In this document: positions 17,719 to 37,214 of the stretch, piece by piece
Position numbering within the stretch: the stretch's first letter is position 1
How the letters are laid out: each line of letters begins with the position of its first letter
From: Escherichia coli 042
GTDB taxonomy: Bacteria > Pseudomonadota > Gammaproteobacteria > Enterobacterales > Enterobacteriaceae
Length of the DNA stretch: 64,000 bases
Direction: 5' to 3' (one strand)
Assembly (NCBI RefSeq): GCF_000027125.1
Contig: NC_017626.1
Notes under the pieces: model-generated
Seen by the model: the letters and a program-made list of their open reading frames with translations, nothing else
Database searches by the model: none
Told to the model about the DNA's origin: nothing
Made by a program: the position numbers and the translations under genes

Positions 17719-17730
17719 TGAGATATTGAT

Positions 17731-18693: not shown

Positions 18694-19695
18694 ATGAGTA
18701 GTTGGCTTGCGATGCTGCAAGATGCCGCAGAGATGTTTGTGTTTCTCGCCGTCGAGCTTTCTTTGCTGTTTATAGTGATTAGTGCCGGTGTCAGCCTGAT
18801 AAGACAAAAGGTGCCAGACCATAAAATCCAGCAGATGATGGGGGCCAGAAAAGGGAGAGGCTATCTCCTGGCGGCTCTGTTGGGAGCCGTTACCCCGTTC
18901 TGTAGTTGCTCGACAATCCCCATGTTACGTGGATTGTTGTCAGCGAAAGCCGGGTTCGGTCCGACCCTCACTTTTTTATTTGTTTCACCGTTACTTAATC
19001 CCATTATCGTCGGACTAATGTGGGTAACCTTTGGCTGGAAAGTTACCTTGTTGTACGCGATTATCGCCGCCGGCATCTCCGTACTTGCCAGTATTATCCT
19101 CGATTCTCTGGGGTTTGAACGTCATATCATTGCCAGTAAAAGCTCATCAGCAAATTGTTGTGCTCCAGCCAAAACTTCGCCAGGGACGACATATACGCCC
19201 ATAAAAGTGAGTTGCTGTAGTCCAGCGGCTAAAGTCATTGAGAAACCCGCAGTTAACTGTTGCAGTACCAAAGCAGTGGCAAGTATTAATCCCATAAAAT
19301 TAGCCATCAAAGATGCATTGCAGCAGTTTAAAGACGTACTGCCATATCTTGTGTTAGGGGTATTACTAGGCTCTTTTATTTATGGCTTTATCCCCTCACA
19401 GTGGATTGCCGCTCATGCAGGGGCAGATAATCCCTTCGCCATCCCATTGAGCGCCGTTGTCGGAATTCCGCTGTATATCCGGGCAGAGGCGGTTATCCCT
19501 CTGGCATCTGTTCTGATGACAAAAGGAATGGGTCTGGGAGCATTAATGGCATTAATCATCGGCAGTGCCGGAGCAAGCCTGACGGAAGTGATATTACTTA
19601 AATCAATGTTCAGAATACCGATGATAGTTGCATTCCTGACGGTTATATTAGGTATGGCTATCTTGATGGGCTATTTGACTCAAATGCTATTTTAA
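18694..19695 (+). CDS. Permease with a cysteine-rich central loop (ArsP / DUF318-like, ~333 aa)
   Basis: TM helices including a TPFCSCS motif flank a hydrophilic loop with three CC pairs (ANCCAP, VSCCSP, VNCCST); start set at the second ATG, which has GAGG upstream. Confidence 0.7.
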   Translation: MSSWLAMLQDAAEMFVFLAVELSLLFIVISAGVSLIRQKVPDHKIQQMMGARKGRGYLLAALLGAVTPFCSCSTIPMLRGLLSAKAGFGPTLTFLFVSPLLNPIIVGLMWVTFGWKVTLLYAIIAAGISVLASIILDSLGFERHIIASKSSSANCCAPAKTSPGTTYTPIKVSCCSPAAKVIEKPAVNCCSTKAVASINPIKLAIKDALQQFKDVLPYLVLGVLLGSFIYGFIPSQWIAAHAGADNPFAIPLSAVVGIPLYIRAEAVIPLASVLMTKGMGLGALMALIIGSAGASLTEVILLKSMFRIPMIVAFLTVILGMAILMGYLTQMLF

Positions 19696-20275
19696 ATAGA
19701 TGCCAGCAGTAAACTATAAGGAGCATTGTGAGTGCCTTATCCTTCTGAGTAGAAAATCATAGATAGGATAATCCTTAAAAATCACAAATAACTTAACTAA
19801 TGCTTTGAGAATGATGACGGATCCGTCAGTAAGTCATCAATCGACAATCACCACGCAATCATGCTTCTCTGACATTTTATCGGAGAAGCAATGTCTCTTT
19901 GTTTCAGTGCTATCCCCCCTTTTAAAGGGCAGATTTCAGTCGCCAATACAACACATTTTTAAATACACTTTAACCTGGTTCATTATTACACATCTAAAAC
20001 ATCACAAAAATATCACTTCACACACTATCGGTGAACATCATAACTTTTTAAAATGAGCGCTTTTTGATAGTTGTTAACGTTTTCCTTTACGATACTATCA
20101 CTGCCCTTTTTTTATACACAAATATTACCGGGTGGAGATAAAAGGGAAATCAAAGGTAATTATATCAGGAAGAGATAACGCATTACATTTATTGTGTGTA
20201 GAAGAAAATCCATTCCTGTTCTAATTATCCAATTTAAACATCTTAGCATAAAACAAATGATGAATAAGGAATTTT

Positions 20276-21499
20276 ATGTCAATTGACTTTACCCCAGGTA
20301 TGATAAATACATATCACGGCGATATTTATAACCGCACAACAGATACCGACAATGTTAAAACACCAGACACACCGATGTGGCCTTGTGATAATCAGGAAGA
20401 ACAGCAGCCCATTAATTTTTCATTGTCTGAAGAAGGATATAACGCTGAACAATTTGATTTAGCGCAACAACAACTCCAACAAATTAATGCGTACCACACG
20501 AACACCACATATACAAATGCAGACTACTCAAAAATTGTGGCTCAAATTGTAAGTCTTATTAATAACATTGAAACGATAAGTTCGACACCACTTACGCAAC
20601 AGACACAATCAATACTTAATCAGATTAATAACATTAGATACGAAAAGAATAAAAATTCTGAATGTCGAATCATTGTTGTCGCTAATCCTAAACCCGACAA
20701 GGCAATCATAACTAAAATTAGCGTAGAAGAGGGAATACCAGTAAGATTCAGTGTCCAAACCATGTTTTCAGATACTAATTTTATTACTGAACAACGAGCT
20801 GACTTACCGACTAATATAAAAGATATTCAAAGCCTGTATCAAAAAATGACGAAGTTATATATTGAGCACAGTGAAAATAAAAACAGGATGAAAGTCTTTG
20901 CCGGAACCAACTTTATTGATTTCAATATGACAGGACAGAACCTGTCCGGGTTCGTTCTAACCTTGTCAAGGTTTTATTTCGAAGATCTACTTAATATAAA
21001 TTTCACTGACGCAAATTTAGGTGACGCTATTTTTTCACATAAAGAACACCCTACCCCAAAATTATATAAAGACGAACAATACCTTGACAAACAAATCGAA
21101 GGTTTATTTTCAACATTATTAACCATTAATGACAACTTTTTACGAGCAAAAGCGGAAATTGCTTCGACAATAATTAAATTCTTAGAGGCCAGGATAACCA
21201 ATATTTCATACAATGACATATTAAAATATCAGAAAGAATTCCAAAAGCAATGTTATAAGCAAGTTAAAGCCTTTACGACACTCTCCCGATACAATAAAAT
21301 TCAAACATGGGCAGAAATGTCTGAATATCAATTCGAAGTATTTCAATACGAGATGCTTAACCCCAAAAAAATGTCATACGCACCTTATTTAAAGAGATCG
21401 CTACCTGATGAAAAAACTATAAATTATGGGGTGGAAATAGAAACACCAACTGGCAAAAGAATTCGCTTATCAAATCATTACCAGAATATAATCCCATAA
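20276..21499 (+). CDS. yhiS: Pentapeptide-repeat protein, intact YhiS-like (407 aa)
   Basis: AT-rich ORF with about 10 consecutive period-5 repeats ([45 protein letters not shown]); position matches yhiS. Confidence 0.7.
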
Positions 21500-21743
21500 T
21501 ATGAACATTAGCACTTTATAATCATTGAATAAAAATAGATTTTATGTACCTTTAAAAAAAGGCTATTTTATGGGGCGATGGATACTCATGTCACGCCCCA
21601 AAATTAACAGAATTAAACTAAACAGAAGGGATATAAACATCAGACAGGTTTACGTTACTATCAGGCATATCGCCTCAGAATCAGATGAAAACTATAAAGA
21701 AATATCTATTATGGTTTTAATATTTGTTGATAAGGATAGTAAC

Positions 21744-22310
21744 ATGAACATGACAAAAGGTGCACTCATCCTCAGCCTTTCATTTTTGCTTGCCGCATGT
21801 AGTTCAATTCCGCAAAATATCAAAGGCAATAACCAACCTGATATTCAAAAAAGTTTTGTTGCTGTTCATAACCAGCCGGGGTTATATGTTGGTCAACAAG
21901 CGCGCTTTGGCGGGAAGGTTATCAACGTTATCAATGGCAAAACGGATACGTTGTTAGAAATCGCTGTATTACCGTTGGATAGCTATGCGAAGCCTGATAT
22001 TGAAGCCAACTATCAGGGCCGACTGCTCGCCAGACAAAGCGGCTTCCTTGATCCAGTGAACTATCGTAATCACTTTGTTACCATCCTCGGTACCATTCAG
22101 GGTGAACAACCTGGCTTTATCAATAAAGTCCCGTATAACTTCCTCGAAGTGAATATGCAGGGCATCCAGGTGTGGCATTTGAGAGAAGTGGTTAATACCA
22201 CCTATAACCTGTGGGATTACGGCTATGGTGCATTCTGGCCGGAACCGGGCTGGGGTGCGCCTTACTACACCAACGCGGTGAGTCAGGTAACACCTGAGCT
22301 GGTCAAATAA
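21744..22310 (+). CDS. slp: Starvation-inducible outer membrane lipoprotein Slp (188 aa)
   Basis: Signal peptide with lipobox LLAACSS; start at the internal ATG of ORF 21525..22310, which has AAGGA upstream. Confidence 0.85.
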   Translation: MNMTKGALILSLSFLLAACSSIPQNIKGNNQPDIQKSFVAVHNQPGLYVGQQARFGGKVINVINGKTDTLLEIAVLPLDSYAKPDIEANYQGRLLARQSGFLDPVNYRNHFVTILGTIQGEQPGFINKVPYNFLEVNMQGIQVWHLREVVNTTYNLWDYGYGAFWPEPGWGAPYYTNAVSQVTPELVK

Positions 22311-22462
22311 CACCACCGAAAGATGCAGATGCTTTCTCAGCATCTGCATCATGCATTACATCAAATTAATACACAGCCAGCTAACTATTATTATAAGCCC
22401 TGTCCTGTTAATTACCTTTGGCAAACTGATTATAAAGTTAATGTCCGCACCAGGAGTCGGTT

Positions 22463-22993
22463 ATGTTTCTTATAATTACCAGGGATACGATGTTCTTCAC
22501 TGCGATGAAAAACATTCTGAGTAAAGGTAATGTCGTTCATATACAGAACGAAGAAGAGATCGACGTAATGTTGCATCAGCATGCCTTCGTCATTATTGAT
22601 ACATTAATGAATAATGTATTTCATTCTAATTTGCTCACTCAAATTGAACGATTAAAACCTGTCCATGTGATTATTTTCTCCCCCTTTAATATTAAACGCT
22701 GCCTGGGGAAAGTACCGGTGACCTTTGTTCCGCGAACTATCACCATCATCGACTTTGTCGCACTCATCAATGGCAGTTACTGCTCTGTGCCTGAAGCGGA
22801 TGTGTCCCTTTCGCGCAAGCAGCATCAGGTTCTGAGCTGCATTGCGAATCAAATGACAACGGAAGATATTCTGGAGAAACTGAAAATATCGCTAAAAACG
22901 TTCTACTGCCATAAACACAATATCATGATGATCCTCAATCTTAAGCGGATCAATGAGTTGGTACGCCATCAGCATATTGATTATCTGGTGTGA
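22463..22993 (+). CDS. dctR: LuxR-family regulator DctR/YhiF (176 aa)
   Basis: C-terminal LuxR-type HTH; length and position match dctR. Confidence 0.8.
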   Translation: MFLIITRDTMFFTAMKNILSKGNVVHIQNEEEIDVMLHQHAFVIIDTLMNNVFHSNLLTQIERLKPVHVIIFSPFNIKRCLGKVPVTFVPRTITIIDFVALINGSYCSVPEADVSLSRKQHQVLSCIANQMTTEDILEKLKISLKTFYCHKHNIMMILNLKRINELVRHQHIDYLV

Positions 22994-23053
22994 TCGATTG
23001 ATTAATATAAAGAGGCCCAGCAATAAATAGCCAGACCTCCCGTTAATTATACG

Positions 23054-24082
23054 TTATGCAGTAACGACTTCCGGTATCAGCGAAGCAATTTGCTTACGCC
23101 ATTGCGCTTGCTCCTGTTCGCCTTCTGTACGTTGACCATAAAGTTGCGCTATCTGCGTACCATCATGGGCAAACAATTCCAGACTGGTCACATAACCGTC
23201 ACTAGCAGGCTTACGGGTTACCCAGGTTTCAGCAATGCTCTCTTCTAATAGATGAAGAGTAAACGTCGGGTTAAAAATATTCAGCCAACCTTTCAGTGGC
23301 ACCACTTTTTCTACCACGCCAGTGAAAATCTGTACGCAGCCACGGTTGCCAACAAACACCATGATTTCATTACCATCCTGCTGTGCAGATTCAAGAATTT
23401 GCGCCAACGCACTGTTGGATACTTTGCAGGCCAAATCGTCTGCCACCAGATTGAACGCCTGTTGGCGCGTCAGGTTGTGGCGCTTGAGCAACGTAAAAAA
23501 CTGATGAACGTCGGTCATCGCCCGCCACTCTTGCTCGACCACACTGGCATCGGCTCGCATTTGAACGACTGGCGCATCAACGGCTTTTAACTCAAGCGGC
23601 GTATTCTCATCGGTGATAAACCGTGCCAGAAGCTCACTCCATGCCGCCATATCGGTATTGTCGGTGGCATAAACTTTTAGTAATGCATCGCCCTGATGAT
23701 CAAAGAACTGAATACTCTGGCGTTCGCCACGAGTCGTATTTTCTTTAATGTGAAAAACACTGGCCCATTGATTGAGAAACAGACGCAAATCCAGCGCGCG
23801 TGGATTGAGGATCAATCCGGCATGTCCGTTCAAATGCTGGTTTGTGAACGCACCAACTTGCTCATGGACTGCATATTCATTACGGCAAATACATTTGGTC
23901 TCGCCAACACTTTCGAGCGCCGCCAGAATGTCACGGATATCGCCGCACATCCGCCACGCATCGTGCGTGACGCGCGCAAATGCCAGTTCTGCTTCGCTAA
24001 TATTCATTAAACCTGCGATGTCACGCGCGTACTTTCCGGGATTTTGTTCTTTTAACTCAAGCCAGCGTGTGTAGTGGTTCAT
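23054..24082 (-). CDS. chuS: Haem oxygenase / haem utilisation protein ChuS (342 aa)
   Basis: HemS/ChuS-family two-domain protein; start set at MNHYTRWLELKEQ. Confidence 0.85.
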   Translation of the reverse strand: MNHYTRWLELKEQNPGKYARDIAGLMNISEAELAFARVTHDAWRMCGDIRDILAALESVGETKCICRNEYAVHEQVGAFTNQHLNGHAGLILNPRALDLRLFLNQWASVFHIKENTTRGERQSIQFFDHQGDALLKVYATDNTDMAAWSELLARFITDENTPLELKAVDAPVVQMRADASVVEQEWRAMTDVHQFFTLLKRHNLTRQQAFNLVADDLACKVSNSALAQILESAQQDGNEIMVFVGNRGCVQIFTGVVEKVVPLKGWLNIFNPTFTLHLLEESIAETWVTRKPASDGYVTSLELFAHDGTQIAQLYGQRTEGEQEQAQWRKQIASLIPEVVTA

Positions 24083-24130
24083 TGTCTCTCTTCCTTCCAT
24101 ATAAATGCCCCGAAATATCGGGGCAGATGA

Positions 24131-26113
24131 TTACCATTGATAACTCACGAAAATTTTTCCATTACGACCATCCTGTGGGATGCCTTGTGGCGACCAGTAC
24201 TCTTTGTCGAAAGCGTTACCCAACACCAAAGTAGTGGTCATACCTTTGAGCGCCTGCTGCCCTTGATAACTGACGTAGAAATCATTCACGCCATAGCCTG
24301 GTTGTTTGCTGTAACTGCTGCTGATATGTGTTGAGCGATCGGCAAACGTACCAACCCACCCAACAGAGAAGCCACTGTGAGCGATCGGAATATTCAGGGT
24401 GCTGGTAACGGTATCCGGGTTAATACTGGAGATATATTCGCCGGTATCGGTGTCTTTGCCGCGGGTACGGTTATAGGCCACATCAAGGCTAAACAGATCA
24501 GTGGTATATTTCGTCATCACATCCCAACCCCAGATTTTGGCGTTCGGGACGTTATACGACATAGTTGTCGCCGCCGCGAAATCGACGGTCGTGGAGATGT
24601 AATCCTTCGCTTTGGTATCAAAGTAGCTGGCTTTAAATTCCAGAGCATCATTGGACAACATCAGATCATCAAAACGCAGCCCAAAACCGTACTCCTGAGT
24701 TTCGTTAGTTTCCGGACGTAAGTTCGGGTTTGGCACCCAATAGTTGGTATAGAAGCGACCAATCGAGAAGTGCTTAGAATCGTTATACATTTCGCCCATC
24801 GTCGGGGCGCGGAATGCCTGGGCATATGAGCCAAATAACATCAGCCAGTTAGCCGGGTTGATAGTCATCCCCGCGCGAGATGACCATTTGTCGGCATCAA
24901 CATCTTTGTAGCCGTCGCTGCTACCGCGATAACTGTCATAGCGGGTTCCGCCAAGCAGGGTAATCGGCAGATCGCGTAAGGTGATCTCATCCTGTAGCCA
25001 GCCGGAGCTAAAATCGATTTTTGCTTGCGGGAAGCCCGTCGTCGCGCCGCCCGGATGTTGTTCCTGACGATAATACTCACCGCCATATGTCAGTAAGTGA
25101 GAAGCGAAACTGTCGGCAAATAGAGTGGAACGGTTCTCCAGTTTGGCTCCTTTTGTTATCTGTTCACGATACTCGCCGGAACTCCCCGTGTTTTGCGCAT
25201 TAATACGGACTTCCGACCAGTAAATTTTTGCATCTGCATTTAACCAGTCGTTGCCCTGCGGGGCGAGTTTATAAGAAAGCTGCGCATCGCGTTGAATTGT
25301 TGAACGATCAACCATCGGGTTGCTGCTATCAGAAGCTTCAACGGTCTGCGGATTTTTTGGTTCACGCGCGTCGTTGTTGTAGTAACGCACTAAACCGCTC
25401 AGAGACTGGGCTGAATCAATTTGCCAGGTCCCTTTCGCCAGCATGTTATTAATGGACTCGTCATTCGGCGCGGTTTCACCATTGCTCTGGCGTAAATCAC
25501 CCCGATCGCGACTGGACCAGGCCACAATACCATCCAGATTTTCAGTTCGCCCAAACGCGCTCGCGCCTAATCCCAGGCTATGGTCCCCCGTGCCGCCAGT
25601 ACCAAAGACACGAAAACCACTACTTTGTCCTTCCTGCAATAAATCTTTTGCATCGACCGTATCGTAGGAGATCACCCCACCCAGCGCGCCACTGCCATAC
25701 AGTAATGCTGAAGGTCCGCGAACAATCTCAACACGCTTGATCAGCGCCGGATCAAGAAAAGTACCATTCAGGTGTCCGGTATCCGTTCCCTGGCGAACAC
25801 CATCGACAAGAACCAGCACGCCGCGATGATCATAGCCACGCATATTTACATCCTGACCGTTGGTTCGTCCGGTACCATCAAGAGTAATTCCAGGAACATG
25901 ACGCAGCAGATCGGTGGCTGAAGTAGCCGTTTGATTTTCAGGAGCGGAAGTGTCGATGACGCTGACCATCATAGGCGCTTCGAAGGAACTACGGGCATTC
26001 CCCGTTGCCGTAACGGTCATGGTTTCAGTAGCAAAAGCAAACGTTGGCAAGGTGGCAGAAACAGCCAAAGCCAACAAACTCAAACGCAACGAGGTAAATT
26101 GCGGACGTGACAT
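24131..26113 (-). CDS. chuA: TonB-dependent outer membrane haem/haemoglobin receptor ChuA (660 aa)
   Basis: Signal peptide, TonB-box region, plug and beta-barrel, C-terminal aromatic residue. Confidence 0.9.
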   Translation of the reverse strand: MSRPQFTSLRLSLLALAVSATLPTFAFATETMTVTATGNARSSFEAPMMVSVIDTSAPENQTATSATDLLRHVPGITLDGTGRTNGQDVNMRGYDHRGVLVLVDGVRQGTDTGHLNGTFLDPALIKRVEIVRGPSALLYGSGALGGVISYDTVDAKDLLQEGQSSGFRVFGTGGTGDHSLGLGASAFGRTENLDGIVAWSSRDRGDLRQSNGETAPNDESINNMLAKGTWQIDSAQSLSGLVRYYNNDAREPKNPQTVEASDSSNPMVDRSTIQRDAQLSYKLAPQGNDWLNADAKIYWSEVRINAQNTGSSGEYREQITKGAKLENRSTLFADSFASHLLTYGGEYYRQEQHPGGATTGFPQAKIDFSSGWLQDEITLRDLPITLLGGTRYDSYRGSSDGYKDVDADKWSSRAGMTINPANWLMLFGSYAQAFRAPTMGEMYNDSKHFSIGRFYTNYWVPNPNLRPETNETQEYGFGLRFDDLMLSNDALEFKASYFDTKAKDYISTTVDFAAATTMSYNVPNAKIWGWDVMTKYTTDLFSLDVAYNRTRGKDTDTGEYISSINPDTVTSTLNIPIAHSGFSVGWVGTFADRSTHISSSYSKQPGYGVNDFYVSYQGQQALKGMTTTLVLGNAFDKEYWSPQGIPQDGRNGKIFVSYQW

Positions 26114-26118
26114 AGCGA

Positions 26119-26134
26119 TTCTCCATGAGGAAAA
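26119..26134 (-). promoter_or_regulatory. FourU-type RNA thermometer hairpin masking the chuA Shine-Dalgarno
   Basis: In chuA orientation 5'-UUUUCC-UCAU-GGAGAA-3' forms a 6-bp stem over the SD, 5 nt before the ATG; such a thermometer has been described for shuA/chuA. Confidence 0.5.
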
Positions 26135-26402
26135 TAAAAAATGCTGGCTGCCTGGGTTAATACCGGGGTGGCTGGCGAAAAATAAATTTATTTAAAATTC
26201 AGAGCGATAATATTCGCCGGGTGAGTTTACAGGCGTTTATATCCCATGAAATTGCCTGGTATCTCGGCAAATACGCAAAAGCACGCCCTCTTTGTCAGGC
26301 AAAACGATATGCCCCATCAGGAGTGAAGAGCGCTGTGCGTTACCCCTTGTAAATGATATGGCTTTGTTATCCATATGGCCGTATTTTGTTAAATGCAAAC
26401 GT

Positions 26403-26421
26403 GATAATGAGAATTATTATC
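26403..26421. promoter_or_regulatory. Fur box (17/19 match) in the chuA-chuT divergent region
   Basis: gataatgagaattattatc against consensus GATAATGATAATCATTATC. Confidence 0.55.
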
Positions 26422-26754
26422 GATCAATTTTTTATGATCAAGCTTTTTTTTAACCGCCATTAACACAATAAACAGAGGGTTATGAAACTTATCCTGCGCC
26501 CTGGAAACCACTTTATTTTTATGGTTATTCCCCCATGACCTCATCACTAAACTTTGTCGTTAACAGTGATAATTTTCTCTTCGCTTTGCTCTGCAAGCCT
26601 CGATATCTCTGGGTTCTCAGCTTTTTCCCGCGCTGAAATTTAGTCGGTAACAAGAACGTTAGCTGACGAAGCATCTTGATAAAAATCAAAAATAAATACG
26701 CTTGTAACGCCTTGCGTATTGAATCGACGGTTGTATTTCATATATAACTCAAAT

Positions 26755-26773
26755 GATAATCATGATCATTCTC
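26755..26773. promoter_or_regulatory. Fur box (16/19 match) just upstream of chuT
   Basis: gataatcatgatcattctc, 24 bp before the chuT ATG. Confidence 0.5.
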
Positions 26774-26796
26774 AATTTGATAAGAGTTCTCATATT

Positions 26797-27711
26797 ATGC
26801 CAAGGATCATCACCAGGCCGTTTCTTTTTTCCCCACTGACGTTATGTATTTCAGCCGTGGCCTCTGCTGCGAAGACCGCGGTAAAACGAAAAAAATTGTT
26901 TACGGCAGTACTGGCTCTTAGCTGGGCTTTTAGCGTAACGGCTGCCGAACGTATCGTGGTCGCAGGAGGATCGCTGACGGAGCTAATCTACGCGATGGGC
27001 GCTGGCGAACGCGTGGTTGGTGTCGATGAAACGACATCTTATCCACCAGAAACCGCCAAACTGCCGCATATTGGCTACTGGAAACAACTCAGCAGCGAAG
27101 GCATTTTGTCACTTCGCCCGGATAGCGTAATTACCTGGCAGGATGCCGGGCCACAAATTGTGCTCGACCAACTACGAGCGCAGAAAGTCAACGTCGTCAC
27201 CCTGCCGCGTGTGCCTGCCACCCTTGAGCAGATGTACGCCAACATTCGCCAACTGGCAAAAACGTTACAGGTTCCTGAACAAGGGGACGCGCTGGTGACA
27301 CAAATCAGCCAACGCCTGGAGCGAGTACAGCAAAACGTGGCGGCCAAAAAAGCCCCGGTTAAAGCCATGTTTATTCTCTCCGCAGGCGGAAGTGCGCCAC
27401 AGGTTGCCGGTAAAGGCAGCGTCGCGGACGCCATTCTTTCGCTTGCCGGAGCAGAAAACGTCGCTACCCACCAGCAGTACAAAAGCTACAGCGCGGAATC
27501 GCTGATTGCGGCTAACCCTGAAGTGATTGTCGTAACCTCACAAATGGTCGATGGCGATATTAATCGGCTACGTTCTATTGCCGGAATTACCCACACTGCC
27601 GCATGGAAAAACCAGCGCATTGTCACCGTTGATCAAAACCTGATTCTGGGAATGGGTCCGCGTATTGCTGATGTCGTTGAGTCTTTACACCAGCAGCTTT
27701 GGCCGCAATAA
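26797..27711 (+). CDS. chuT: Periplasmic haem-binding protein ChuT (~304 aa)
   Basis: Signal peptide and class III periplasmic binding-protein fold; start chosen at the ATG after the Fur box, alternative starts are possible. Confidence 0.75.
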   Translation: MPRIITRPFLFSPLTLCISAVASAAKTAVKRKKLFTAVLALSWAFSVTAAERIVVAGGSLTELIYAMGAGERVVGVDETTSYPPETAKLPHIGYWKQLSSEGILSLRPDSVITWQDAGPQIVLDQLRAQKVNVVTLPRVPATLEQMYANIRQLAKTLQVPEQGDALVTQISQRLERVQQNVAAKKAPVKAMFILSAGGSAPQVAGKGSVADAILSLAGAENVATHQQYKSYSAESLIAANPEVIVVTSQMVDGDINRLRSIAGITHTAAWKNQRIVTVDQNLILGMGPRIADVVESLHQQLWPQ

Positions 27712-27730
27712 ATGGATTTAAATCAGACGA

Positions 27731-29068
27731 ATGAACACAAATAACACCCTGGATCTCACGCCACATTTTGCTTTAGACGGTGATCAGCCATTTAAAGACA
27801 GGCGCGCCATGATGCCGTTTCGTGGGGCCATTCCAGTTGCCAAAGAGCAACTGGCACAGACCTGGCAAGAGATGCTCAATCAAACGGTATCACCACGTAA
27901 GCGACTGGTTTATCTACACATTCCTTTTTGTGCAACACACTGCACGTTTTGTGGTTTTTATCAGAACCGTTTTAATGAAGATGCGTGTGCTCATTATACC
28001 GACGCCCTGATTCGTGAAATAGAAATGGAAGCGGACAGCGTATTGCATCAGTCAGCCCCCATCCACGCGGTCTATTTCGGTGGCGGCACGCCTTCCGCGC
28101 TTTCGGCACACGATTTGGCCAGAATTATCACCACATTACGAGAAAAGCTGCCACTGGCCCCTGATTGTGAAATCACTATCGAAGGCCGGGTACTGAATTT
28201 TGACGCTGAGCGAATCGATGCTTGCCTTGATGCAGGAGCAAACCGCTTCTCAATTGGTATTCAGTCGTTTAACAGCAAAATCCGCAAGAAAATGGCCCGC
28301 ACCTCGGATGGCCCAACCGCCATTGCGTTTATGGAAAGCCTGGTCAAACGCGACCGTGCAGCGGTGGTCTGTGACCTGCTGTTTGGCCTGCCGGGTCAGG
28401 ATGCGCAAACCTGGGGAGAAGATCTGACTATTGCCCGCGATATCGGTCTCGACGGCGTCGATCTCTATGCGCTCAATGTCCTGCCCAATACACCGCTGGG
28501 CAAAGCCGTGGAAAATGGGCGCACTACCGTGCCCTCTCCGGCAGAACGTCGCGATCTTTATCTGCAAGGGTGTGATTTTATGGACGATGCCGGTTGGCGC
28601 TGCATCAGTAACAGCCACTGGGGCCGTACCACACGCGAACGCAATCTCTATAACCTGCTGATAAAACAAGGTGCCGATTGTCTGGCCTTTGGTTCCGGAG
28701 CCGGCGGTTCGATTAATGGTTACTCCTGGATGAACGAACGCAATCTGCAGACCTGGCATGAATCCGTCGCGGCAGGCAAAAAACCGCTGATGATGATCAT
28801 GCGTAACGCCGAACGTAATGCGCAATGGCGTCATACCTTGCAGTCAGGTGTTGAAACAGCGCGTGTACCGCTGGATGAACTTACGCCACATGCCGAAAAA
28901 CTCGCGCCGTTACTGGCTCAATGGCACCAAAAAGGCTTAAGCCGCGATGCGTCAACTTGCCTGCGGCTGACTAATGAAGGTCGTTTCTGGGCAAGCAATA
29001 TTTTGCAGTCTCTTAATGAACTAATTCAGGTACTTAATGCGCCAGCGATTGTGCGTGAAAAACCATAA
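27731..29068 (+). CDS. chuW: Radical SAM haem-degrading enzyme ChuW (445 aa)
   Basis: Radical-SAM cluster motif C-x3-C-x2-C (CATHCTFCGF). Confidence 0.85.
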   Translation: MNTNNTLDLTPHFALDGDQPFKDRRAMMPFRGAIPVAKEQLAQTWQEMLNQTVSPRKRLVYLHIPFCATHCTFCGFYQNRFNEDACAHYTDALIREIEMEADSVLHQSAPIHAVYFGGGTPSALSAHDLARIITTLREKLPLAPDCEITIEGRVLNFDAERIDACLDAGANRFSIGIQSFNSKIRKKMARTSDGPTAIAFMESLVKRDRAAVVCDLLFGLPGQDAQTWGEDLTIARDIGLDGVDLYALNVLPNTPLGKAVENGRTTVPSPAERRDLYLQGCDFMDDAGWRCISNSHWGRTTRERNLYNLLIKQGADCLAFGSGAGGSINGYSWMNERNLQTWHESVAAGKKPLMMIMRNAERNAQWRHTLQSGVETARVPLDELTPHAEKLAPLLAQWHQKGLSRDASTCLRLTNEGRFWASNILQSLNELIQVLNAPAIVREKP

Positions 29069-29080
29069 CAGGAGTGATTT

Positions 29081-29575
29081 ATGAGCCATGTCTCGTTACA
29101 AGAATTTTTGAAAACGGAGCCGGACGGTACGCTGGAGGTGGTAGCCGAACAATACAACACCACACTGCTGGAAGTAGTGAAAAATCTGCCCTCCTCTACC
29201 ATAGTGTCAGGCGATAAATTCGATACTGTCTGGGATACCGTCTGCGAATGGGGCAACGTCACCACGTTAGTACATACTGCCGATGTCATCCTCGAATTTA
29301 GCGGCGAACTGCCTTCGGGTTTCCACCGCCACGGCTATTTCAACCTACGCGGAAAGCACGGCATGTCCGGGCATATCAAAGCAGAAAACTGCACACATAT
29401 TGCCTTGATCGGACGTAAATTTATGGGCATGGACACCGCATCCATTCTCTTTTTCAACAAAGAAGGCAGCGCAATGCTGAAAATCTTCCTCGGCAGGGAT
29501 GACCATCGTCAGCTCCTGAGCGAACAAGTCAGCGCCTTCCATGCTCTGGCAGCATCGTTAAAGGAACACGCCTGA
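29081..29575 (+). CDS. chuX: Haem-binding / haem utilisation protein ChuX (164 aa)
   Basis: Position between chuW and chuY; size matches ChuX. Confidence 0.8.
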   Translation: MSHVSLQEFLKTEPDGTLEVVAEQYNTTLLEVVKNLPSSTIVSGDKFDTVWDTVCEWGNVTTLVHTADVILEFSGELPSGFHRHGYFNLRGKHGMSGHIKAENCTHIALIGRKFMGMDTASILFFNKEGSAMLKIFLGRDDHRQLLSEQVSAFHALAASLKEHA

Positions 29576-30198
29576 TGACGCCGTGGCTACTCTTTGGCGC
29601 AGGCGGAAAAGGTATGGGTGCCAGAACGCTTGAACTGGCGCTGGCGGAACAACGTCCGGTCGTTGCTGTCGTTCGTCATGCCGATGCCGCTACGAAACTG
29701 GCGCAACAAGGCGTACAGGTTTTTACAGGCGACGCCTGTGATGCCAGCGTAGTCGCGAATGCTTGCCGCGCAGCTGGCCCGGATGCGCTTATCATCTCAA
29801 CAATGGGCGGAGCTCAGGATTATCTGGCGCACAGAACAGTGATTGATGAGGCCGAAAAGGCCGGCATCAGTCGCATGATTCTGGTGACCTCTTTGGGATG
29901 CGGCGATAGCTGGCCGTTTTTATCGGAGCGGGCAAAGGCTGCGTTTGGTCAGGCGGTACGGGAAAAAACGCTGGCGGAAAGCTGGTTGCAAACCAGCCAG
30001 CTTGATTACGCCATTCTCCGCCCTGGCGGTCTGCTTGATGGGGCGGCAACGGGCAAAGCACAACGGATACAAAATCAGGAGTGTCATGGTTTTGTTCACC
30101 GTGCCGATGTCGCCGCACATATCCATGAACTGGCAAATGCGCCAGCACTTAACCAGCAGGTCTACAGTCTGATTGAACCGGACCTGAAACCGGCGTGA
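29575..30198 (+). CDS. chuY: NAD(P)-binding reductase ChuY (207 aa)
   Basis: N-terminal Rossmann motif LLFGAGGKGMGA; start overlaps the chuX stop. Confidence 0.8.
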   Translation: MTPWLLFGAGGKGMGARTLELALAEQRPVVAVVRHADAATKLAQQGVQVFTGDACDASVVANACRAAGPDALIISTMGGAQDYLAHRTVIDEAEKAGISRMILVTSLGCGDSWPFLSERAKAAFGQAVREKTLAESWLQTSQLDYAILRPGGLLDGAATGKAQRIQNQECHGFVHRADVAAHIHELANAPALNQQVYSLIEPDLKPA

Positions 30199-30246
30199 TA
30201 CCCCGGCGCGGCATGTCCGCGCCGTAATGTCGTAACGGAGTTTTGC

Positions 30247-31239
30247 GTGCTCAAGGATTCACTCTCTTCCGCCAGGGTCTTTATGGGGCTATCACTATTA
30301 TTGCTAGCTCTGGTGCTGTTCGGTGCCAGTCAGGGAGCGTTAAAGATCAGTTTTGATGCCCTTTTTGATGAGGAATACCGCGATATTTGGCTCAATATTC
30401 GTCTACCACGGGTTTTGTTGGCGGTGCTGGTAGGTGCAGCGTTGGCAACCGCAGGGGTAATTATGCAGGGGCTTTTTCGCAACCCAATGGCTGACCCTGG
30501 ATTACTCGGCGTCAGTAGCGGTTCTGCATTAATGGTTGGCGTTGCTATTGTACTGCCCTTTTCGTTCCCCGTGGTGCTGGTGCTTTATGAACAAATGGTG
30601 TTTGCCATCGCCGGAAGTTTAGTGGTCTGCACCATCATTTTTCTCATCACGCAGCGCCATCGCGATGGCAGCATGATGCAATTGTTACTCGCCGGTATCG
30701 CCATCAATGCCCTGTGCGGCGCAGCGATCGGCATCCTGAGCTATATCGGCGATGAGCAACAGCTACGACAACTCACGTTGTGGATGATGGGCAATCTCGG
30801 TCAGGCGCAATGGCCAACGTTATTGGTTGCCAGTTCCTTCATTCTGCCCGCCATTATGGCAACAACGTGTCTCGCCGGAACGCTGAATTTGCTGCAGCTC
30901 GGTGATGAAGAAGCCCATTACCTCGGCGTGAACGTAAAGCGTAAACGCCAGCAATTACTGTTAGTGAGCTCACTGCTCGTTGGTGCCGCCGTATCGGTAA
31001 GCGGCATTATCGGCTTTATTGGCCTGGTGATCCCGCATCTGATTCGTATGACTACCGGGGCAAATCACCGCTGGCTAATCCCTTGCTCCGCCCTCGCCGG
31101 AGCCTGTTTATTGCTGATGGCAGACACGCTTGCCCGCACGCTGGTACAGCCAGCAGAAATGCCCGTGGGATTATTAACCAGCCTGCTTGGCGGTCCTTAT
31201 TTTATGTGGTTGATTCTGCGCAACCGGAGGATCACATGA
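30247..31239 (+). CDS. chuU: Haem ABC transporter permease ChuU (FecCD family, 330 aa)
   Basis: FecCD-type permease with about 9-10 TM segments. Confidence 0.85.
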
Positions 31240-32006
31240 TCAGCGCCCAGAATCTGGTTTATAGCCTTCAGGGGCGGCGTCTGACTGACAATGTCTCGCT
31301 GACTTTTCCCGGTGGGGAAATTGTTGCCATTCTCGGCCCTAATGGTGCGGGAAAATCTACGCTGCTTCGCCAGTTAACCGGCTATCTTCAACCTGATAGC
31401 GGCGAATGTCGGTTGTTTAATAAGCCATTAAATGAATGGTCGATTACTGAACTGGCGAAACACCGGGCCGTGATGCGTCAAAATAGCCACATGGCGTTTC
31501 CATTCAGCGTACAAGAAGTTATCCAGATGGGGCGGCATCCGCATCGTACTGGTAATCAGGATAATGAAACAGCACAAATAATGGCGTTATGTGACTGTCA
31601 GGCGTTAGCAAACCGCGACTATCGGCAATTATCCGGTGGTGAACAACAGCGCGTGCAATTAGCGCGCCTGCTGGTGCAACTCTGGGAACCTACTCCCTCA
31701 CCGAAATGGTTATTTCTTGATGAGCCAACTTCGGCGCTGGATATTCACCATCAGCAGCACTTGTTCCGTTTATTACGCCAGTTAGTTCACGAACGGCAGT
31801 TCAATGTTTGCTGCGTATTGCACGATCTAAATCTTGCCGCGCGTTATGCAGACCGTGTTGTATTAATGCAAAAAGGAAAGGTTATCGCAAATGGTAAACC
31901 TCAGGACGTATTGACACAGCAGGCGCTGACAATGCTCTACGGCGCGGATATTACCGTACTTAAAGATCCTGCCAACCATTCACCACTGATCGTCCTCGAT
32001 CATTAA
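31236..32006 (+). CDS. chuV: Haem ABC transporter ATP-binding protein ChuV/HmuV (256 aa)
   Basis: Walker [13 protein letters not shown] signature LSGGEQQR, Walker B LFLDEP; ATGA start/stop overlap with chuU. Confidence 0.85.
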
Positions 32007-32012
32007 AAGCAA

Positions 32013-32037
32013 CAGGAGTACCGCACTGGTACTCCTG
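32013..32037 (+). terminator. Hairpin after chuV (candidate terminator)
   Basis: caggagtaccgcactggtactcctg, 6 nt after the chuV stop. Confidence 0.45.
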
Positions 32038-32057
32038 CGAATAAATAACTATACAGA

Positions 32058-32705
32058 TTAGCTAATTGAAACGCCTTTCACCCCTGCCATACCTTTTAAT
32101 AATCGCAACAGATCTTCTATCGACGTTGTGGCATGAAGCTGGATATCAATGGCGACCACTTCATGATCTTCATTTTCCTGCAACGAAACTAAATCAGTTT
32201 TTATTTTTTGCTGCTTAAACCAGTCGAGCATTGACACCGTATTACCGTTCACTAATGTCAGCTGTAAATGGTAATTTTTGTTCATCAGGCGGAAGGTTAA
32301 TTGATGGAAGACTTCCAGCACCAGTAAGGTCATCACTGAACCATAAATGCCCAGTTCGTACATACCGCTACCAATAACCATACCAATGGCGGCGGTCACC
32401 CAGATATCCGCTGCCGTCGTCAGACCTACAATATTTTGGTTACGAACGAGAATGTTACCTGCACCGATAAACCCGACGCCCGTCACCACCTGAGCAGCAA
32501 TACGGCTGGGGTCCAGTCCGACGTGATCTAAAGACAGCACGTCAGCAAAACCATATTTCGAAACAATCATAAACAGGGCGCTTCCCATGCCAATTAATAC
32601 ATGTGTGCGTAACCCTGCTCCTTTGCCGCGCATTTGCCTTTCCATGCCAATAGCGCCACAGGCAATTGCTGCGAGTATAAGACGTATAATAAATTCTGCT
32701 GTCAT
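32058..32705 (-). CDS. yhiD: MgtC-family inner membrane protein YhiD (215 aa)
   Basis: MgtC/SapB-type TM domain; start set at MTAEFIIRLILAAIACGAIGMERQ. Confidence 0.8.
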   Translation of the reverse strand: MTAEFIIRLILAAIACGAIGMERQMRGKGAGLRTHVLIGMGSALFMIVSKYGFADVLSLDHVGLDPSRIAAQVVTGVGFIGAGNILVRNQNIVGLTTAADIWVTAAIGMVIGSGMYELGIYGSVMTLLVLEVFHQLTFRLMNKNYHLQLTLVNGNTVSMLDWFKQQKIKTDLVSLQENEDHEVVAIDIQLHATTSIEDLLRLLKGMAGVKGVSIS

Positions 32706-32768
32706 ATAAAAATGCAAAAAGGAGCAGCAAGATGGCTCAACTTGCTACTCCTTTTTACTTGTACCTCA

Positions 32769-33095
32769 TTAATTCGGCAAGTCATTAGATGCTTGATTTT
32801 TGAAGGTATACAAATTTTTCTGCGGGTTTTTCTTGCAGTATTCGATCACTTTAGGAATTTGAGTGAGATCGGTTTCATTTAAAGTAACGGTATCGCCACC
32901 TTTATATACTGTTTCTTCATGCAGCATCCACCATGCAACCGGTGTCATGGCTTTTGGATTCAGATCAATAAATTCCTGGCAGGTCATATCTTTAGCGGAT
33001 TCATTGGCTGCCAGCGCAGATTGTGCGTTCACCAGTGACAAAGCCGCTACAGCGCCCATAAAAATAAACGCTTTACGGAGAGATGAAATATTCAT
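32769..33095 (-). CDS. hdeB: Periplasmic acid-stress chaperone HdeB (108 aa)
   Basis: Signal peptide and HdeB sequence (MNISSLRKAFIFMGAVAALSLVNAQSALA...). Confidence 0.85.
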   Translation of the reverse strand: MNISSLRKAFIFMGAVAALSLVNAQSALAANESAKDMTCQEFIDLNPKAMTPVAWWMLHEETVYKGGDTVTLNETDLTQIPKVIEYCKKNPQKNLYTFKNQASNDLPN

Positions 33096-33210
33096 TTTGT
33101 AACCCATTCAATATAGAGATTATATATGAACAGGAGGAATAGCTGCTTTTAAAGAAGATATTCCGGCCTGTTCAATATGCAAGGAAGTACGATGTAACGC
33201 ATTCCCGGAA

Positions 33211-33543
33211 TTACATATCTTTCTTAATTTTGTCCCATTCGCCTTTAACTTTATCTTTAAAGTTGGCTTGTTTATCCTGAGTACAAGCCTGAACGATAGC
33301 TGGGGTTACGGTTGCAATACCCTGAACATCTAAAACCGCATCTTCTGGTTTATCTTTGTTGTTCAGCGCTTCAGCAAAACCAACTGCAGTTGGCTGGAAG
33401 GATTCGTCCACAGCCAGGAAATCTTCACAGGTCCAGGAGTTGACCGGTTTTTTGTTATCAGCTGCTTTTTGCGCATCCGCTGCATTGCTCACAACTGGCA
33501 GAAGAAGCAGACCACCAAGAATAACGCCTAATACTTTTTTCAT
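33211..33543 (-). CDS. hdeA: Periplasmic acid-stress chaperone HdeA (110 aa)
   Basis: Signal peptide MKKVLGVILGGLLLLPVVSNA and the conserved Cys pair. Confidence 0.9.
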   Translation of the reverse strand: MKKVLGVILGGLLLLPVVSNAADAQKAADNKKPVNSWTCEDFLAVDESFQPTAVGFAEALNNKDKPEDAVLDVQGIATVTPAIVQACTQDKQANFKDKVKGEWDKIKKDM

Positions 33544-33797
33544 CGTAATATCCTCAACTATAAAGTGAAAGAGCCGTCACGAATCAATTTCGACACTGAG
33601 GTTATAACCTGGTTTTCTGTATATGTCATGTTGATGGAAAATATCAAAATCAGATATTTTTATTTCAATACAATGAGTTACAGATGCATCAGATACTGTA
33701 ATTAGGAAATTTTTATTAAATCGACTGCATTCTTAGACGCGTTTTTGGCATAGATTGATAGCAGGGGATTTTCTTCTTAATTTTATAGGGTGGTTCT

Positions 33798-34370
33798 ATG
33801 TTATATATAGATAAGGCAACAATTTTGAAGTTTGATCTGGAGATGCTGAAAAAGCATCGCAGAGCAATCCAGTTTATTGCCGTGTTGCTGTTTATCGTCG
33901 GGTTGCTGTGTATCAGTTTCCCGTTCGTCTCTGGCGATATTTTAAGCACGGTAGTGGGTGCATTATTAATATGCTCGGGCGTTGCGCTTATTGTTGGATT
34001 ATTCAGCAACCGCAGTCATAATTTCTGGCCGGTATTATCCGGTTTCCTCGTCGCAGTCGCCTATTTATTGATCGGCTATTTCTTCATCCGCGCACCGGAG
34101 CTGGGCATTTTTGCCATTGCGGCATTTATTGCCGGTTTGTTCTGTGTTGCAGGGGTTATTCGCCTGATGAGTTGGTATCGTCAGCGTTCAATGAAAGGCA
34201 GCTGGCTACAGCTCGTTATTGGTGTGCTGGATATCGTCATTGCCTGGATATTCCTTGGTGCAACGCCGATGGTGTCTGTAACTTTGGTTTCCACACTGGT
34301 GGGTATTGAACTGATATTTAGCGCCGCCAGCCTGTTCAGCTTCGCCAGTTTGTTCGTTAAGCAGCAATAA
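33798..34370 (+). CDS. hdeD: Acid-resistance membrane protein HdeD (190 aa)
   Basis: Six-TM small membrane protein, divergent from hdeAB. Confidence 0.85.
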   Translation: MLYIDKATILKFDLEMLKKHRRAIQFIAVLLFIVGLLCISFPFVSGDILSTVVGALLICSGVALIVGLFSNRSHNFWPVLSGFLVAVAYLLIGYFFIRAPELGIFAIAAFIAGLFCVAGVIRLMSWYRQRSMKGSWLQLVIGVLDIVIAWIFLGATPMVSVTLVSTLVGIELIFSAASLFSFASLFVKQQ

Positions 34371-35166
34371 TTATCCCAGTTGTCACCCGGATCATAGTCA
34401 CTTGATGTGACTATGATCCGATTAATACTCTCTCCGCTACACAGCGTTGTAGATCAATTGCGCACTATCATTGAAATAATTACCTGCTGATGATTATTTC
34501 AACCTACTGAATTTCATCTGATTTTTTCATTCCATGGCAAATTAGCCATTTCAAACATTATCATGGCTGATATTTTCCGTAGTCAGGTTTAATGTTTTAA
34601 AAGTGCTGTGGGAAAGTGAACAAAGAGTTCCGTAAGCGTTGATGCTATGGGCGGTTAAATAAGTAATCCGGGTTCATTTTTTGCAACAGGCGTTGATTAC
34701 ATTGCATAAATATCCGTGTCTCCAGACGCTATATAAAAACCTGAAGACATGAATGAGTTATTTACTCAGGTAATTTCAATGCGTTAAAAGAAAGCTGGCA
34801 ATCCAATTGCCAGCTTAAGTCGAAACAAGGAGACTCGATATTTAAATCGGATTACATTTTAACTTTAGTAATATTCTTCAGAGATCACAAACTGGTTATT
34901 GATAACTTATTCTTGGGCAGTAATCCGCAAACGTTAACTTTTTGTTTACTATTTACAAACTGTTAACAACCAGGAATCTTACTTAGGATCAATATATGGA
35001 GTGCGTGATGGATAAATCTGAAGTATTGATTAGTGTTAATAAACGTATTAGTTCACGAAGGGCAAAGTTCTTATAGGCGTTTACTATATTGAACAACGAT
35101 TCGGACAAGGATGTAAATAATGAAAAGGATGACATGTGCGAAACGATAACGGCTAAGGAGCAAGTT

Positions 35167-35694
35167 ATGATTTTTCTCATGACGAAAGATTCTTTTCTTT
35201 TACAGGGCTTTTGGCAGTTGAAAGATAATCACGAAATGATAAAAATCAATTCCCTGTCAGAGATCAAAAAAGTAGGCAATAAACCCTTCAAGGTTATCAT
35301 TGATACCTATCACAATCATATCCTTGATGAAGAAGCGATTAAATTTCTGGAGAAATTAGATGCCGAGAGAATTATTGTTTTGGCACCTTATCACATCAGT
35401 AAACTAAAAGCTAAAGCGCCTATTTATTTTGTCAGCCGCAAAGAAAGTATCAAAAATCTTCTTGAGATTACTTATGGTAAACACTTGCCCCATAAGAATT
35501 CACAATTATGTTTTTCACATAATCAGTTCAAAATTATGCAACTGATTCTGAAAAATAAAAATGAAAGCAATATCACGTCGACGCTCAATATTTCGCAACA
35601 AACATTAAAGATTCAGAAATTCAACATTATGTACAAGCTGAAACTAAGACGTATGAGCGACATCGTCACCCTGGGTATCACATCTTATTTTTAG
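35167..35694 (+). CDS. gadE: LuxR-family acid-resistance activator GadE (175 aa)
   Basis: Sequence MIFLMTKDSFLLQGFWQL... with C-terminal LuxR HTH; preceded by the ~800 bp regulatory region typical of gadE. Confidence 0.85.
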   Translation: MIFLMTKDSFLLQGFWQLKDNHEMIKINSLSEIKKVGNKPFKVIIDTYHNHILDEEAIKFLEKLDAERIIVLAPYHISKLKAKAPIYFVSRKESIKNLLEITYGKHLPHKNSQLCFSHNQFKIMQLILKNKNESNITSTLNISQQTLKIQKFNIMYKLKLRRMSDIVTLGITSYF

Positions 35695-36032
35695 TCAGGA
35701 CATAAGCAACTGAAATTGATGGCTGGCATGACGAGGGATGCAGATGCTGATTTCATTACCCCCGGTGATTACTAAAGGAGAGGCGAAAACGACTTTATTC
35801 CCCTGGTATGTGTATCCACCAGTAGAACCCTTCGTTGCCCGAATGCTGGCAGGAACTGTTGGCAGAACGGCAACATTTTTTTTGTCGTTGACCTCACCAT
35901 GTCGATCACTATGCCTGTATCCCACCTTACTGGCTGACAACCCCACTATGCCGCTGGTCTGTAAATCCCTCATATCTCTCCTCGCGCGCAATTTAAAGAA
36001 CCGTTATTTCTCAAGAATTTTCAGGGACTAAA

Positions 36033-37190
36033 ATGAACAGAAGAAGAAAGCTGTTAATACCGTTGTTATTCTGCGGCGCGATGCTCACCGCCTGCGATGA
36101 CAAATCGGCGGAAAACGCCGCCGCCATGACGCCTGAGGTCGGTGTCGTCACGCTCTCCCCCGGTTCGGTCAATGTGTTGAGCGAATTACCCGGTAGAACC
36201 GTTCCTTATGAAGTTGCCGAGATACGTCCCCAGGTGGGCGGTATTATCATTAAACGCAACTTTATCGAAGGCGATAAAGTGAACCAGGGCGATTCGCTGT
36301 ATCAGATTGATCCTGCACCTTTACAGGCCGAGCTGAACTCCGCCAAAGGCACGCTGGCGAAAGCGCTCTCTACCGCCAGCAATGCCCGCATCACCTTTAA
36401 CCGCCAGGCATCGTTGCTGAAGACCAACTACGTTAGCCGTCAGGATTACGACACCGCGCGCACCCAGTTGAATGAAGCAGAAGCCAATGTCACCGTCGCC
36501 AAAGCGGCTGTTGAACAGGCGACTATCAACCTGCAATACGCAAATGTCACCTCGCCGATTACGGGCGTCAGCGGGAAATCGTCGGTGACCGTCGGCGCAC
36601 TCGTTACCGCTAATCAGGCAGATTCGCTGGTTACCGTACAACGTCTGGACCCGATTTATGTCGATCTCACGCAGTCGGTGCAGGATTTCTTGCGTATGAA
36701 AGAAGAGGTCGCCAGTGGGCAAATCAAACAGGTTCAGGGCAGTACGCCAGTACAGCTCAATCTGGAAAATGGTAAACGTTACAGCCAGACCGGCACGCTG
36801 AAATTCTCCGACCCGACGGTGGATGAAACCACGGGCTCCGTGACGTTACGGGCGATTTTCCCCAACCCAAATGGTGACTTGCTGCCTGGCATGTATGTCA
36901 CGGCATTAGTGGATGAAGGTAGCCGCCAGAATGTATTACTGGTGCCGCAGGAAGGTGTCACCCACAACGCCCAGGGTAAAGCAACGGCGCTCATTCTGGA
37001 TAAAGACGATGTTGTGCAGCTACGCGAAATTGAAGCCAGCAAAGCCATCGGCGACCAGTGGGTCGTCACCTCTGGCTTACAGGCTGGCGATCGGGTGATT
37101 GTTTCCGGTTTGCAACGCATTCGTCCGGGTATCAAAGCACGAGCAATTTCCTCCAGCCAGGAAAACGCCAGCACCGAATCGAAACAATAA
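36033..37190 (+). CDS. mdtE: RND efflux membrane fusion lipoprotein MdtE (385 aa)
   Basis: Lipobox MLTAC; HlyD/AcrA-like coiled-coil and barrel domains. Confidence 0.9.
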   Translation: MNRRRKLLIPLLFCGAMLTACDDKSAENAAAMTPEVGVVTLSPGSVNVLSELPGRTVPYEVAEIRPQVGGIIIKRNFIEGDKVNQGDSLYQIDPAPLQAELNSAKGTLAKALSTASNARITFNRQASLLKTNYVSRQDYDTARTQLNEAEANVTVAKAAVEQATINLQYANVTSPITGVSGKSSVTVGALVTANQADSLVTVQRLDPIYVDLTQSVQDFLRMKEEVASGQIKQVQGSTPVQLNLENGKRYSQTGTLKFSDPTVDETTGSVTLRAIFPNPNGDLLPGMYVTALVDEGSRQNVLLVPQEGVTHNAQGKATALILDKDDVVQLREIEASKAIGDQWVVTSGLQAGDRVIVSGLQRIRPGIKARAISSSQENASTESKQ

Positions 37191-37214
37191 CGTTGCAGGC
37201 TTAAGGGGACTTTC

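Follow-up and report, generated by a model that had tools for sequence, protein, structure and literature searches.

The chu locus lies complete between dctR and yhiD

In the 64,000-nucleotide stretch of Escherichia coli DNA analysed here (the window), the genes between dctR and yhiD constitute, with a probability of about 93%, the canonical Chu (Shu) locus for haem uptake and utilisation, which is complete, apparently functional and found at its standard site within the slp-gadA acid fitness island. Alignment of the junctions with K-12 MG1655 delimited the chu segment to window positions 22994-32057 (9,064 bp), which stand in for a 41-bp spacer of K-12. An earlier reading of the letters alone (the sequence-only reading) had recognised eight haem acquisition genes, chuS, chuA and chuTWXYUV, at 23054-32037 between dctR and yhiD, and all eight were confirmed at this place by intact open reading frames (ORFs), family models and solved structures. 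Position 23054 is exactly the end of chuS, and 32037 lies 31 bp beyond the chuV stop codon, where a hairpin that separates chuV from yhiD ends. The genes of the locus, its flanks and the two ends of the island are as follows, together with the evidence that identifies them; ABC stands for ATP-binding cassette, SAM for S-adenosylmethionine and ECA64 is the complete genome closest to the window at the flanks.

21744-22310: slp, acid fitness island
22463-22993, plus strand: dctR (yhiF), left flank, acid fitness island gene; RefSeq annotation of relatives, 100% identical to ECA64
23054-24082, minus strand: chuS, cytoplasmic haem-degrading/haem-binding protein, 342 residues; two HemS/ChuX domains (Pfam), PDB 1U9T and 4CDP (E=3e-225)
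24131-26113, minus strand: chuA, TonB-dependent outer-membrane haem/haemoglobin receptor, 660 residues; TIGR01785, 588 bits against a cut-off of 317
26797-27711, plus strand: chuT, periplasmic haem-binding protein of the ABC importer, 304 residues; Pfam Peripla_BP_2, PDB 2R7A and 2RG7 (ShuT; E=3e-162)
27731-29068, plus strand: chuW, radical-SAM methyltransferase for anaerobic haem ring opening, 445 residues; TIGR04107 HutW/ChuW equivalog, 570 bits against 400
29081-29575, plus strand: chuX, cytosolic haem carrier, 164 residues; TIGR04108 HutX, 207 bits against 110, PDB 2OVI (E=1e-106)
29575-30198, plus strand: chuY, NAD(P)H-dependent anaerobilin reductase, 207 residues; Pfam NAD_binding_10, PDB 5FFQ and 5GUY (E=5e-133)
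30247-31239, plus strand: chuU, inner-membrane permease of the ABC importer, 330 residues, GTG start; FecCD/BtuC-type permease, ShuU/ChuU annotation
31236-32006, plus strand: chuV, ATPase of the ABC importer, 256 residues; NF010068 haem ABC ATP-binding model, 397 bits against 261
32012-32038: chuV/yhiD hairpin with an 11-pair stem between convergent genes; terminator-like scan
32058-32705, minus strand: yhiD, right flank, acid fitness island gene; NF007431, 402 bits against a cut-off of 214, and annotation of relatives
42972-44372: gadA, acid fitness island

All eight chu ORFs are full length, with an ATG or GTG start, a stop codon at the end and no internal stops; their lengths are those of the RefSeq counterparts in close relatives, and the differences from relatives fall chiefly at third codon positions or are synonymous. 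chuS and chuA are read from the minus strand, and chuT, chuW, chuX, chuY, chuU and chuV from the plus strand. The curated cut-offs of NCBIfam models were passed by ChuA, ChuW, ChuX and ChuV, while ChuS, ChuT and ChuY were recognised by Pfam domains, and ChuS is annotated under this name in RefSeq relatives. Among solved structures, ChuA matches those of ChuA itself (PDB 9DHE) and ShuA (3FHH) with E=0. ChuW carries the motif CATHCTFC (CxxxCxxC) at residue 67; no solved orthologue of ChuW was found, and its nearest solved relative is HemN (1OLT). ChuV contains the Walker A motif GPNGAGKS and the signature LSGGE. The residues that we take to be functional are present, namely His86 and His420 of mature ChuA (ShuA numbering), His193 and Arg100 of ChuS and Tyr94 of ChuT; both haem-binding positions of mature ChuA (86 and 420) are thus occupied by histidine.

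Two signal-peptide-like hydrophobic stretches precede the mature protein within residues 1-49 of ChuT (window 26797-26943), and the crystal structure of ShuT (2R7A) begins at residue 49. The true start of ChuT is uncertain, since gene callers give lengths of 304, 307, 308 or 330 residues in different genomes; the ATG at 26797 is backed by the published mapping of shuT (PMC5458455).

The acid fitness island of the window contains the full K-12 gene set in K-12 order (slp, dctR, yhiD, hdeB, hdeA, hdeD, gadE, mdtE, mdtF, gadW, gadX and gadA) and extends over about 22.6 kb (21744-44372); sizes of 13.6 kb in K-12 and 22,676 bp in EDL933 have been reported (PMC9144400). At the right end of the chu segment, the chuV/yhiD hairpin is retained in Escherichia sp. 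E2562 by compensatory changes, from CAGGAGTAC/GTACTCCTG to CGGGAGTAC/GTACTCCCG, which suggests that it is under selection and likely serves as a two-way terminator.

The locus makes it probable that the strain can draw iron from host haem, an ability that is recognised as a trait of fitness and virulence. The arrangement, the alleles and the amendment on its probable ancestry presented below are all already known, so that the finding, correct but ordinary, matters for annotation and typing only.

Regulatory elements in the chuA-chuT spacer

The 683-bp spacer between the divergent genes chuA and chuT holds both matches to the Fur box detected in the 64-kb window, where 0.01 would be expected by chance. 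These and the other regulatory elements of the locus are:

26403-26421: Fur box of the chuA promoter, GATAATGAGAATTATTATC, 2 differences from consensus
26114-26404, minus strand: chuA 5' untranslated region of the type found in enterohaemorrhagic E. coli (EHEC) and Shigella, about 291 nt, from a putative transcription start
26111-26142, minus strand: FourU RNA thermometer over the chuA Shine-Dalgarno sequence; Rfam RF02597 (shuA_thermo), 60.1 bits against a gathering score of 58
26755-26773: Fur box covering positions +1 to +19 in the transcript of chuT, 3 differences from consensus, conserved across species
24106-24125, minus strand: hairpin between chuA and chuS, GC-rich and followed by a T-rich tail; terminator-like scan, consensus match

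The Fur box of chuA is invariant across four Escherichia species wherever it could be aligned, and is overlapped by a promoter-like site on the minus strand with a predicted -10 element at 26413-26418. It lies about 291 nt upstream of the chuA ATG, which fits the 291-nt leader described for chuA (PMC9002310). The leader is 96.2% identical to that of O157:H7 Sakai and 81.9% identical to that of CFT073, a contrast that fits the difference between the EHEC leader and that of uropathogenic E. coli (UPEC) set out in the same report (PMC9002310). The chuT ATG (26797) follows the first base of the second Fur box by exactly 42 nt, and in shuT the transcription start was mapped 42 nt upstream of the gene, with a Fur site at +1 to +19 (PMC5458455). 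Hardly any change is seen in either promoter region when four Escherichia species are compared, in contrast to the middle of the spacer, which is variable.

In the predicted thermometer the U-run pairs with the Shine-Dalgarno sequence (UUUUCC with GGAGAA), and the function of the shuA/chuA thermometer has been demonstrated (PMC3660397). The 42-nt leader of chuT, a candidate for a second RNA thermometer, is also present and conserved; its predicted fold is no more stable than those of shuffled sequences (z = +0.25), and Rfam has no model for it. The hairpin between chuA and chuS is a possible attenuator within the chuAS transcript.

Upstream of the chuT promoter, a block at about 26657-26700 that holds the palindrome TTGATAAAAATCAA is near-invariant in four Escherichia species, whereas the neighbouring spacer is variable; this block may be a site for an additional regulator or a Fur-like site. 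An 18-codon ORF in the spacer (26483-26539) was rejected, its ATG reading ATA in two of the four aligned species. The search for a GAD box near the chu genes, as a sign of regulatory coupling to GadE, gave none within 3 mismatches, the sole site being the one at gadA.

Proposed mechanism of haem uptake and utilisation

By near-identity to the studied orthologues, the following course of events can be proposed. ChuA would take haem from host haemoproteins and move it over the outer membrane with energy supplied through TonB, ChuT would ferry it through the periplasm, and ChuUV would import it across the inner membrane at the expense of ATP. In the cytoplasm ChuS would bind and degrade haem when oxygen is present, while under anaerobic conditions the radical-SAM enzyme ChuW would open the ring, yielding iron and anaerobilin, the latter being reduced by ChuY, with ChuX acting as a haem carrier or buffer; this anaerobic branch is covered by previous work (PMC10114669, PMC10404700). 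Expression would be driven by two divergent Fur-repressed promoters in the chuA-chuT spacer, relieved of Fur at low iron, and translation of chuA would be gated by the FourU thermometer, needing 37 degrees C or the small RNA CyaR (PMC3660397, PMC9002310). Iron scarcity together with a temperature of 37 degrees C, as met in a host, would hence switch the system on.

Origin of the chu segment and alternative explanations

The gene order slp-dctR-chuS-chuA-chuTWXYUV-(yhiD)-hdeB-hdeA-hdeD-gadE-mdtEF is also present in E. albertii (three loci), Escherichia sp. E2562 (two loci) and Escherichia sp. 93.0816 (two loci). The chu genes of E. albertii and the two other Escherichia are 87-95% identical to those of the window and the flanking island genes 84-95%, a similar degree of divergence that fits vertical co-inheritance. 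Neither integrase, transposase nor tRNA genes were found for the chu segment in the ORF list and annotations, its ends share no repeats of 9 bp or more, and it does not have the features of a mobile genomic island in the sense of an integrative element. At 50.4%, the GC content of the segment is the same as in the part of the window outside the island (50.4%); the acid genes next to it are AT-rich (40-43% GC), so that they, and not chu, appear compositionally odd.

The groups that lack chu, namely A, B1 and C, form a derived clade in the phylogeny of E. coli, and for this reason ancestral presence followed by one later loss is the economical reading. Taken with the layout in the related species, this points to chu having most probably belonged to the region before E. 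coli, E. albertii and the other sampled Escherichia diverged, and having been lost later toward the K-12-like groups; the segment is probably not a recent insertion into an island of the K-12 type. The statement of the sequence-only reading that chu splits the acid fitness island holds for the position, as given by the junctions with K-12; the insertion that its wording implies is improbable, the same layout being found in E. albertii and two other Escherichia. The K-12 "acid fitness island" is probably a reduced form of a larger ancestral region, which has already been said in print. The same observation on chu and the island was made for O157:H7 and E. albertii in the xenoGI study, which came to the same interpretation and according to which the two gene sets may have arrived together (PMC5799925).

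The E. albertii loci also differ from the window in other respects: yhiD is missing; an indel in chuA leaves this gene uncalled in two loci and, in the third, divided into pieces of 514 and 164 residues; and dctR is uncalled or truncated in two loci.

It could be argued instead that chu is a horizontally acquired islet, of the O-island 140 type, which was inserted into a pre-existing acid fitness island of the K-12 kind in an ancestor of the pathogenic lineages. Such an origin would explain the polymorphism of presence and absence within E. coli, given that chu occurs at this site (at least 80% of the query) in 2,234 of 5,426 complete genomes, the others matching the flanks only; it would also explain why the K-12 spacer is unrelated to the ends of the segment, as if K-12 had kept the original spacer, and why the GC content of chu is unlike that of the neighbouring acid genes. 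The older literature likewise speaks of horizontal transfer (Wyckoff 1998, as cited in PMC5799925; PMC9002310). However, both site and order are shared by E. albertii and two other Escherichia with a divergence like that of the flanks, mobility genes, tRNA and end repeats are lacking from the segment, whose GC content is that of the genome-like flanks. Moreover, with A, B1 and C forming a derived clade, a single loss is a simpler assumption than repeated gains at the very same site, and we therefore regard insertion as unlikely.

A bolder version of shared ancestry is that the haem module and the acid genes entered the Escherichia ancestor together as a composite island for host passage, of which the K-12 form would be a derived remnant, with 9 kb replaced by an unrelated 41 bp, and that the locus is still being exchanged by homologous recombination. 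Continuing exchange between lineages is suggested by a 2.1%-divergent tract from chuT to yhiD (see below). Taken as a whole, this scenario is in our view unlikely. The idea of co-acquisition has already been floated (PMC5799925); what would be new is the mechanism of replacement or a regulatory link between acid and haem, if shown.

Returning to a functional locus of ancestral origin, some points weigh against this interpretation. Haem transport, Fur repression and thermoregulation are attributed to the window by sequence identity to studied orthologues. By folding energy alone, the two thermometer regions cannot be told from shuffled sequence (chuA, z = -1.6; chuT, z = +0.25), and although weak scores are expected for hairpins that are deliberately weak, they provide no positive evidence. 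Furthermore, the search for a deletion scar in K-12 was uninformative: the 41-bp spacer between dctR and yhiD resembles neither the ends nor the interior of the chu segment more than shuffled sequence does, so that a simple clean deletion is not demonstrated. E. fergusonii is reported to carry a version of the island without chu, at another site (PMC5799925), which complicates the story of a single loss.

That the locus is a decayed, pseudogenised remnant without haem uptake, as is seen for chuA in some E. albertii, is very improbable. Decay does occur in the genus, as the indel and the uncalled or split chuA of E. albertii indicate, but in the window the eight ORFs are full length without internal stops, with substitutions that are mainly synonymous, no damage is seen in the key residues, the two Fur boxes or the thermometer, and the Shu transporter is listed among the iron-uptake systems of strain 042 (PMC2808357). 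Finally, the possibility that these are chu-like but unrelated iron-siderophore transport genes, which the sequence-only reading had named as the outcome that would speak against it, was rejected and can be practically dismissed: ChuA, ChuT, ChuU and ChuV match siderophore and vitamin B12 transporter families weakly, as do all members of their superfamilies, but the TonB-hemin model reaches 588 bits where the siderophore receptor model reaches 113, the model of the haem ABC ATPase gives 397 bits, ChuS, ChuW, ChuX and ChuY have no siderophore counterpart, and near-identity extends to the solved ChuA/ShuA, ShuT, ChuS, ChuX and ChuY.

Strain alleles and phylogroup

ChuS, ChuA, ChuT, ChuW, ChuX, ChuY and ChuU are exact matches to the consecutive accessions CBG36619-CBG36625 of enteroaggregative E. 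coli (EAEC) 042; ChuV is also an exact match to a public protein, but its sequence is widespread. At the DNA level, 20,993 bp of the window are matched with 100% identity by the draft assembly GCA_048604725.1.

In an in silico polymerase chain reaction for chuA, the check that had been proposed for the phylogroup, the Clermont primers matched perfectly at 25859-25878 (minus strand) and 25591-25610 (plus strand), giving a 288-bp product (25591-25878). The primers are chuA.1b and chuA.2 of Clermont 2013. A chuA-positive strain is not of phylogroup A, B1 or C, and chuA alone does not separate B2, D, E, F and G; arpA, yjaA and TspE4.C2, by which a single group is assigned, are located outside the window. 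EAEC 042 (O44:H18), whose iron-uptake systems are listed as including the Shu transporter, was placed in group D (PMC2808357), and from the exact protein identity to this strain we infer that the source of the window belongs to group D as well. The claim of the sequence-only reading that the source lies outside phylogroup A was accordingly upheld by the chuA amplicon, by the EAEC 042 alleles and by the lack of the locus in K-12.

Recombination tract and neighbouring genes

Divergence along the region was measured against ECA64 and is distributed as follows:

21000-23295: 0 mismatches
23296-26868 (chuS, chuA and spacer): 12 mismatches, 0.3%
27226-32538 (chuT through yhiD): 111 mismatches in 5,313 bp, 2.1%
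32539-42000: 2 mismatches, about 0.02%

Differences in the 5.3-kb tract from chuT to yhiD fall chiefly at third codon positions, and its best match among the 5,426 complete genomes, a collection from which the 042 lineage is absent, is 98.7% identical, compared with matches of 99.8-99.9% for the flanks. The tract is not a unique divergent allele, since it consists of the alleles of EAEC 042 and is present in dozens of assemblies, in one with 100% identity at the DNA level; a donor outside E. coli was rejected as well, E. albertii and other Escherichia being only 88-95% identical. It is an ordinary mosaic of homologous recombination.

Several features were observed outside the chu segment. Upstream of the island, a five-gene arsenic operon, arsR-arsD-arsA-arsB-arsC, occupies 13854-18156, where K-12 and O157 Sakai have only arsRBC. 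Between arsC and a yhiS-like gene, positions 18290-19695 encode a divergent pair, an ArsR/SmtB-type regulator (18290-18586, minus strand) and an ArsP_1 permease (18682-19695, plus strand), which is absent from K-12 and present in relatives and in Escherichia sp. E2562. The yhiS-like ORF of 407 residues (20276-21499) has no Pfam domain and is intact in the window; in K-12 IS5 splits it, and in the closest complete genomes it bears a frameshift mark. The region comprising its upstream sequence and 5' end (about 20130-20500) is hypervariable, being 94% identical to ECA64 in surroundings that are 100% identical, with a best match of 98.8% among the 5,426 genomes.

Within the acid fitness island, Rfam models identified the small RNAs ES205 (35812-35883, just 3' of gadE, 105 bits) and GadY (41663-41776, between gadW and gadX, 150 bits), and a perfect 20-bp GAD box is located upstream of gadA (44452-44471). 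Directly after gadE, an antisense ORF of 98 residues (35695-35991, minus strand) corresponds to a RefSeq hypothetical protein of 92 residues in relatives, and no Pfam hit is recorded for it; because it overlaps the ES205 region, the call may be spurious.

Comparison with known loci

The occurrence of chu between dctR and yhiD has been stated outright in the literature (PMC2241611, PMC9144400), and the description given by the sequence-only reading, of an arrangement known from O157:H7 and extraintestinal lineages, agrees with what is found in Sakai and CFT073. When the whole 9,064-bp segment was aligned to the corresponding regions of these two strains, as had been proposed for checking that description, each aligned as a single colinear piece with the same junctions. 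In O157:H7 Sakai the chu genes (ECs_4379-ECs_4387, between yhiF and yhiD) are the same eight, in the same order and orientation and with the same junctions, at 97.5% identity over 9,063 bp; the differences are only allelic (about 2.5%), with chuU the most divergent gene (95.5%). CFT073, a uropathogenic strain of phylogroup B2, has the same genes in the same place; the segment as a whole is 96.4% identical, and here the chuA-chuT spacer is far more divergent (88.3%).

The founding description of the locus is that of shu in Shigella dysenteriae (shuS, shuA and shuTWXYUV), and the window fits it at the level of proteins, Rfam model and published coordinates, that is, in the structures of ShuA and ShuT, the thermometer model of shuA, the start of shuT and the geometry of its Fur site. 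With the acid fitness island of K-12 (slp-gadA, 13.6 kb) the window shares all twelve genes in the same order at 97.5-100% identity, but where dctR and yhiD of K-12 are 41 bp apart, the window has 9,064 bp of chu genes, and its island of about 22.6 kb is close in length to the 22,676 bp of EDL933 (PMC9144400).

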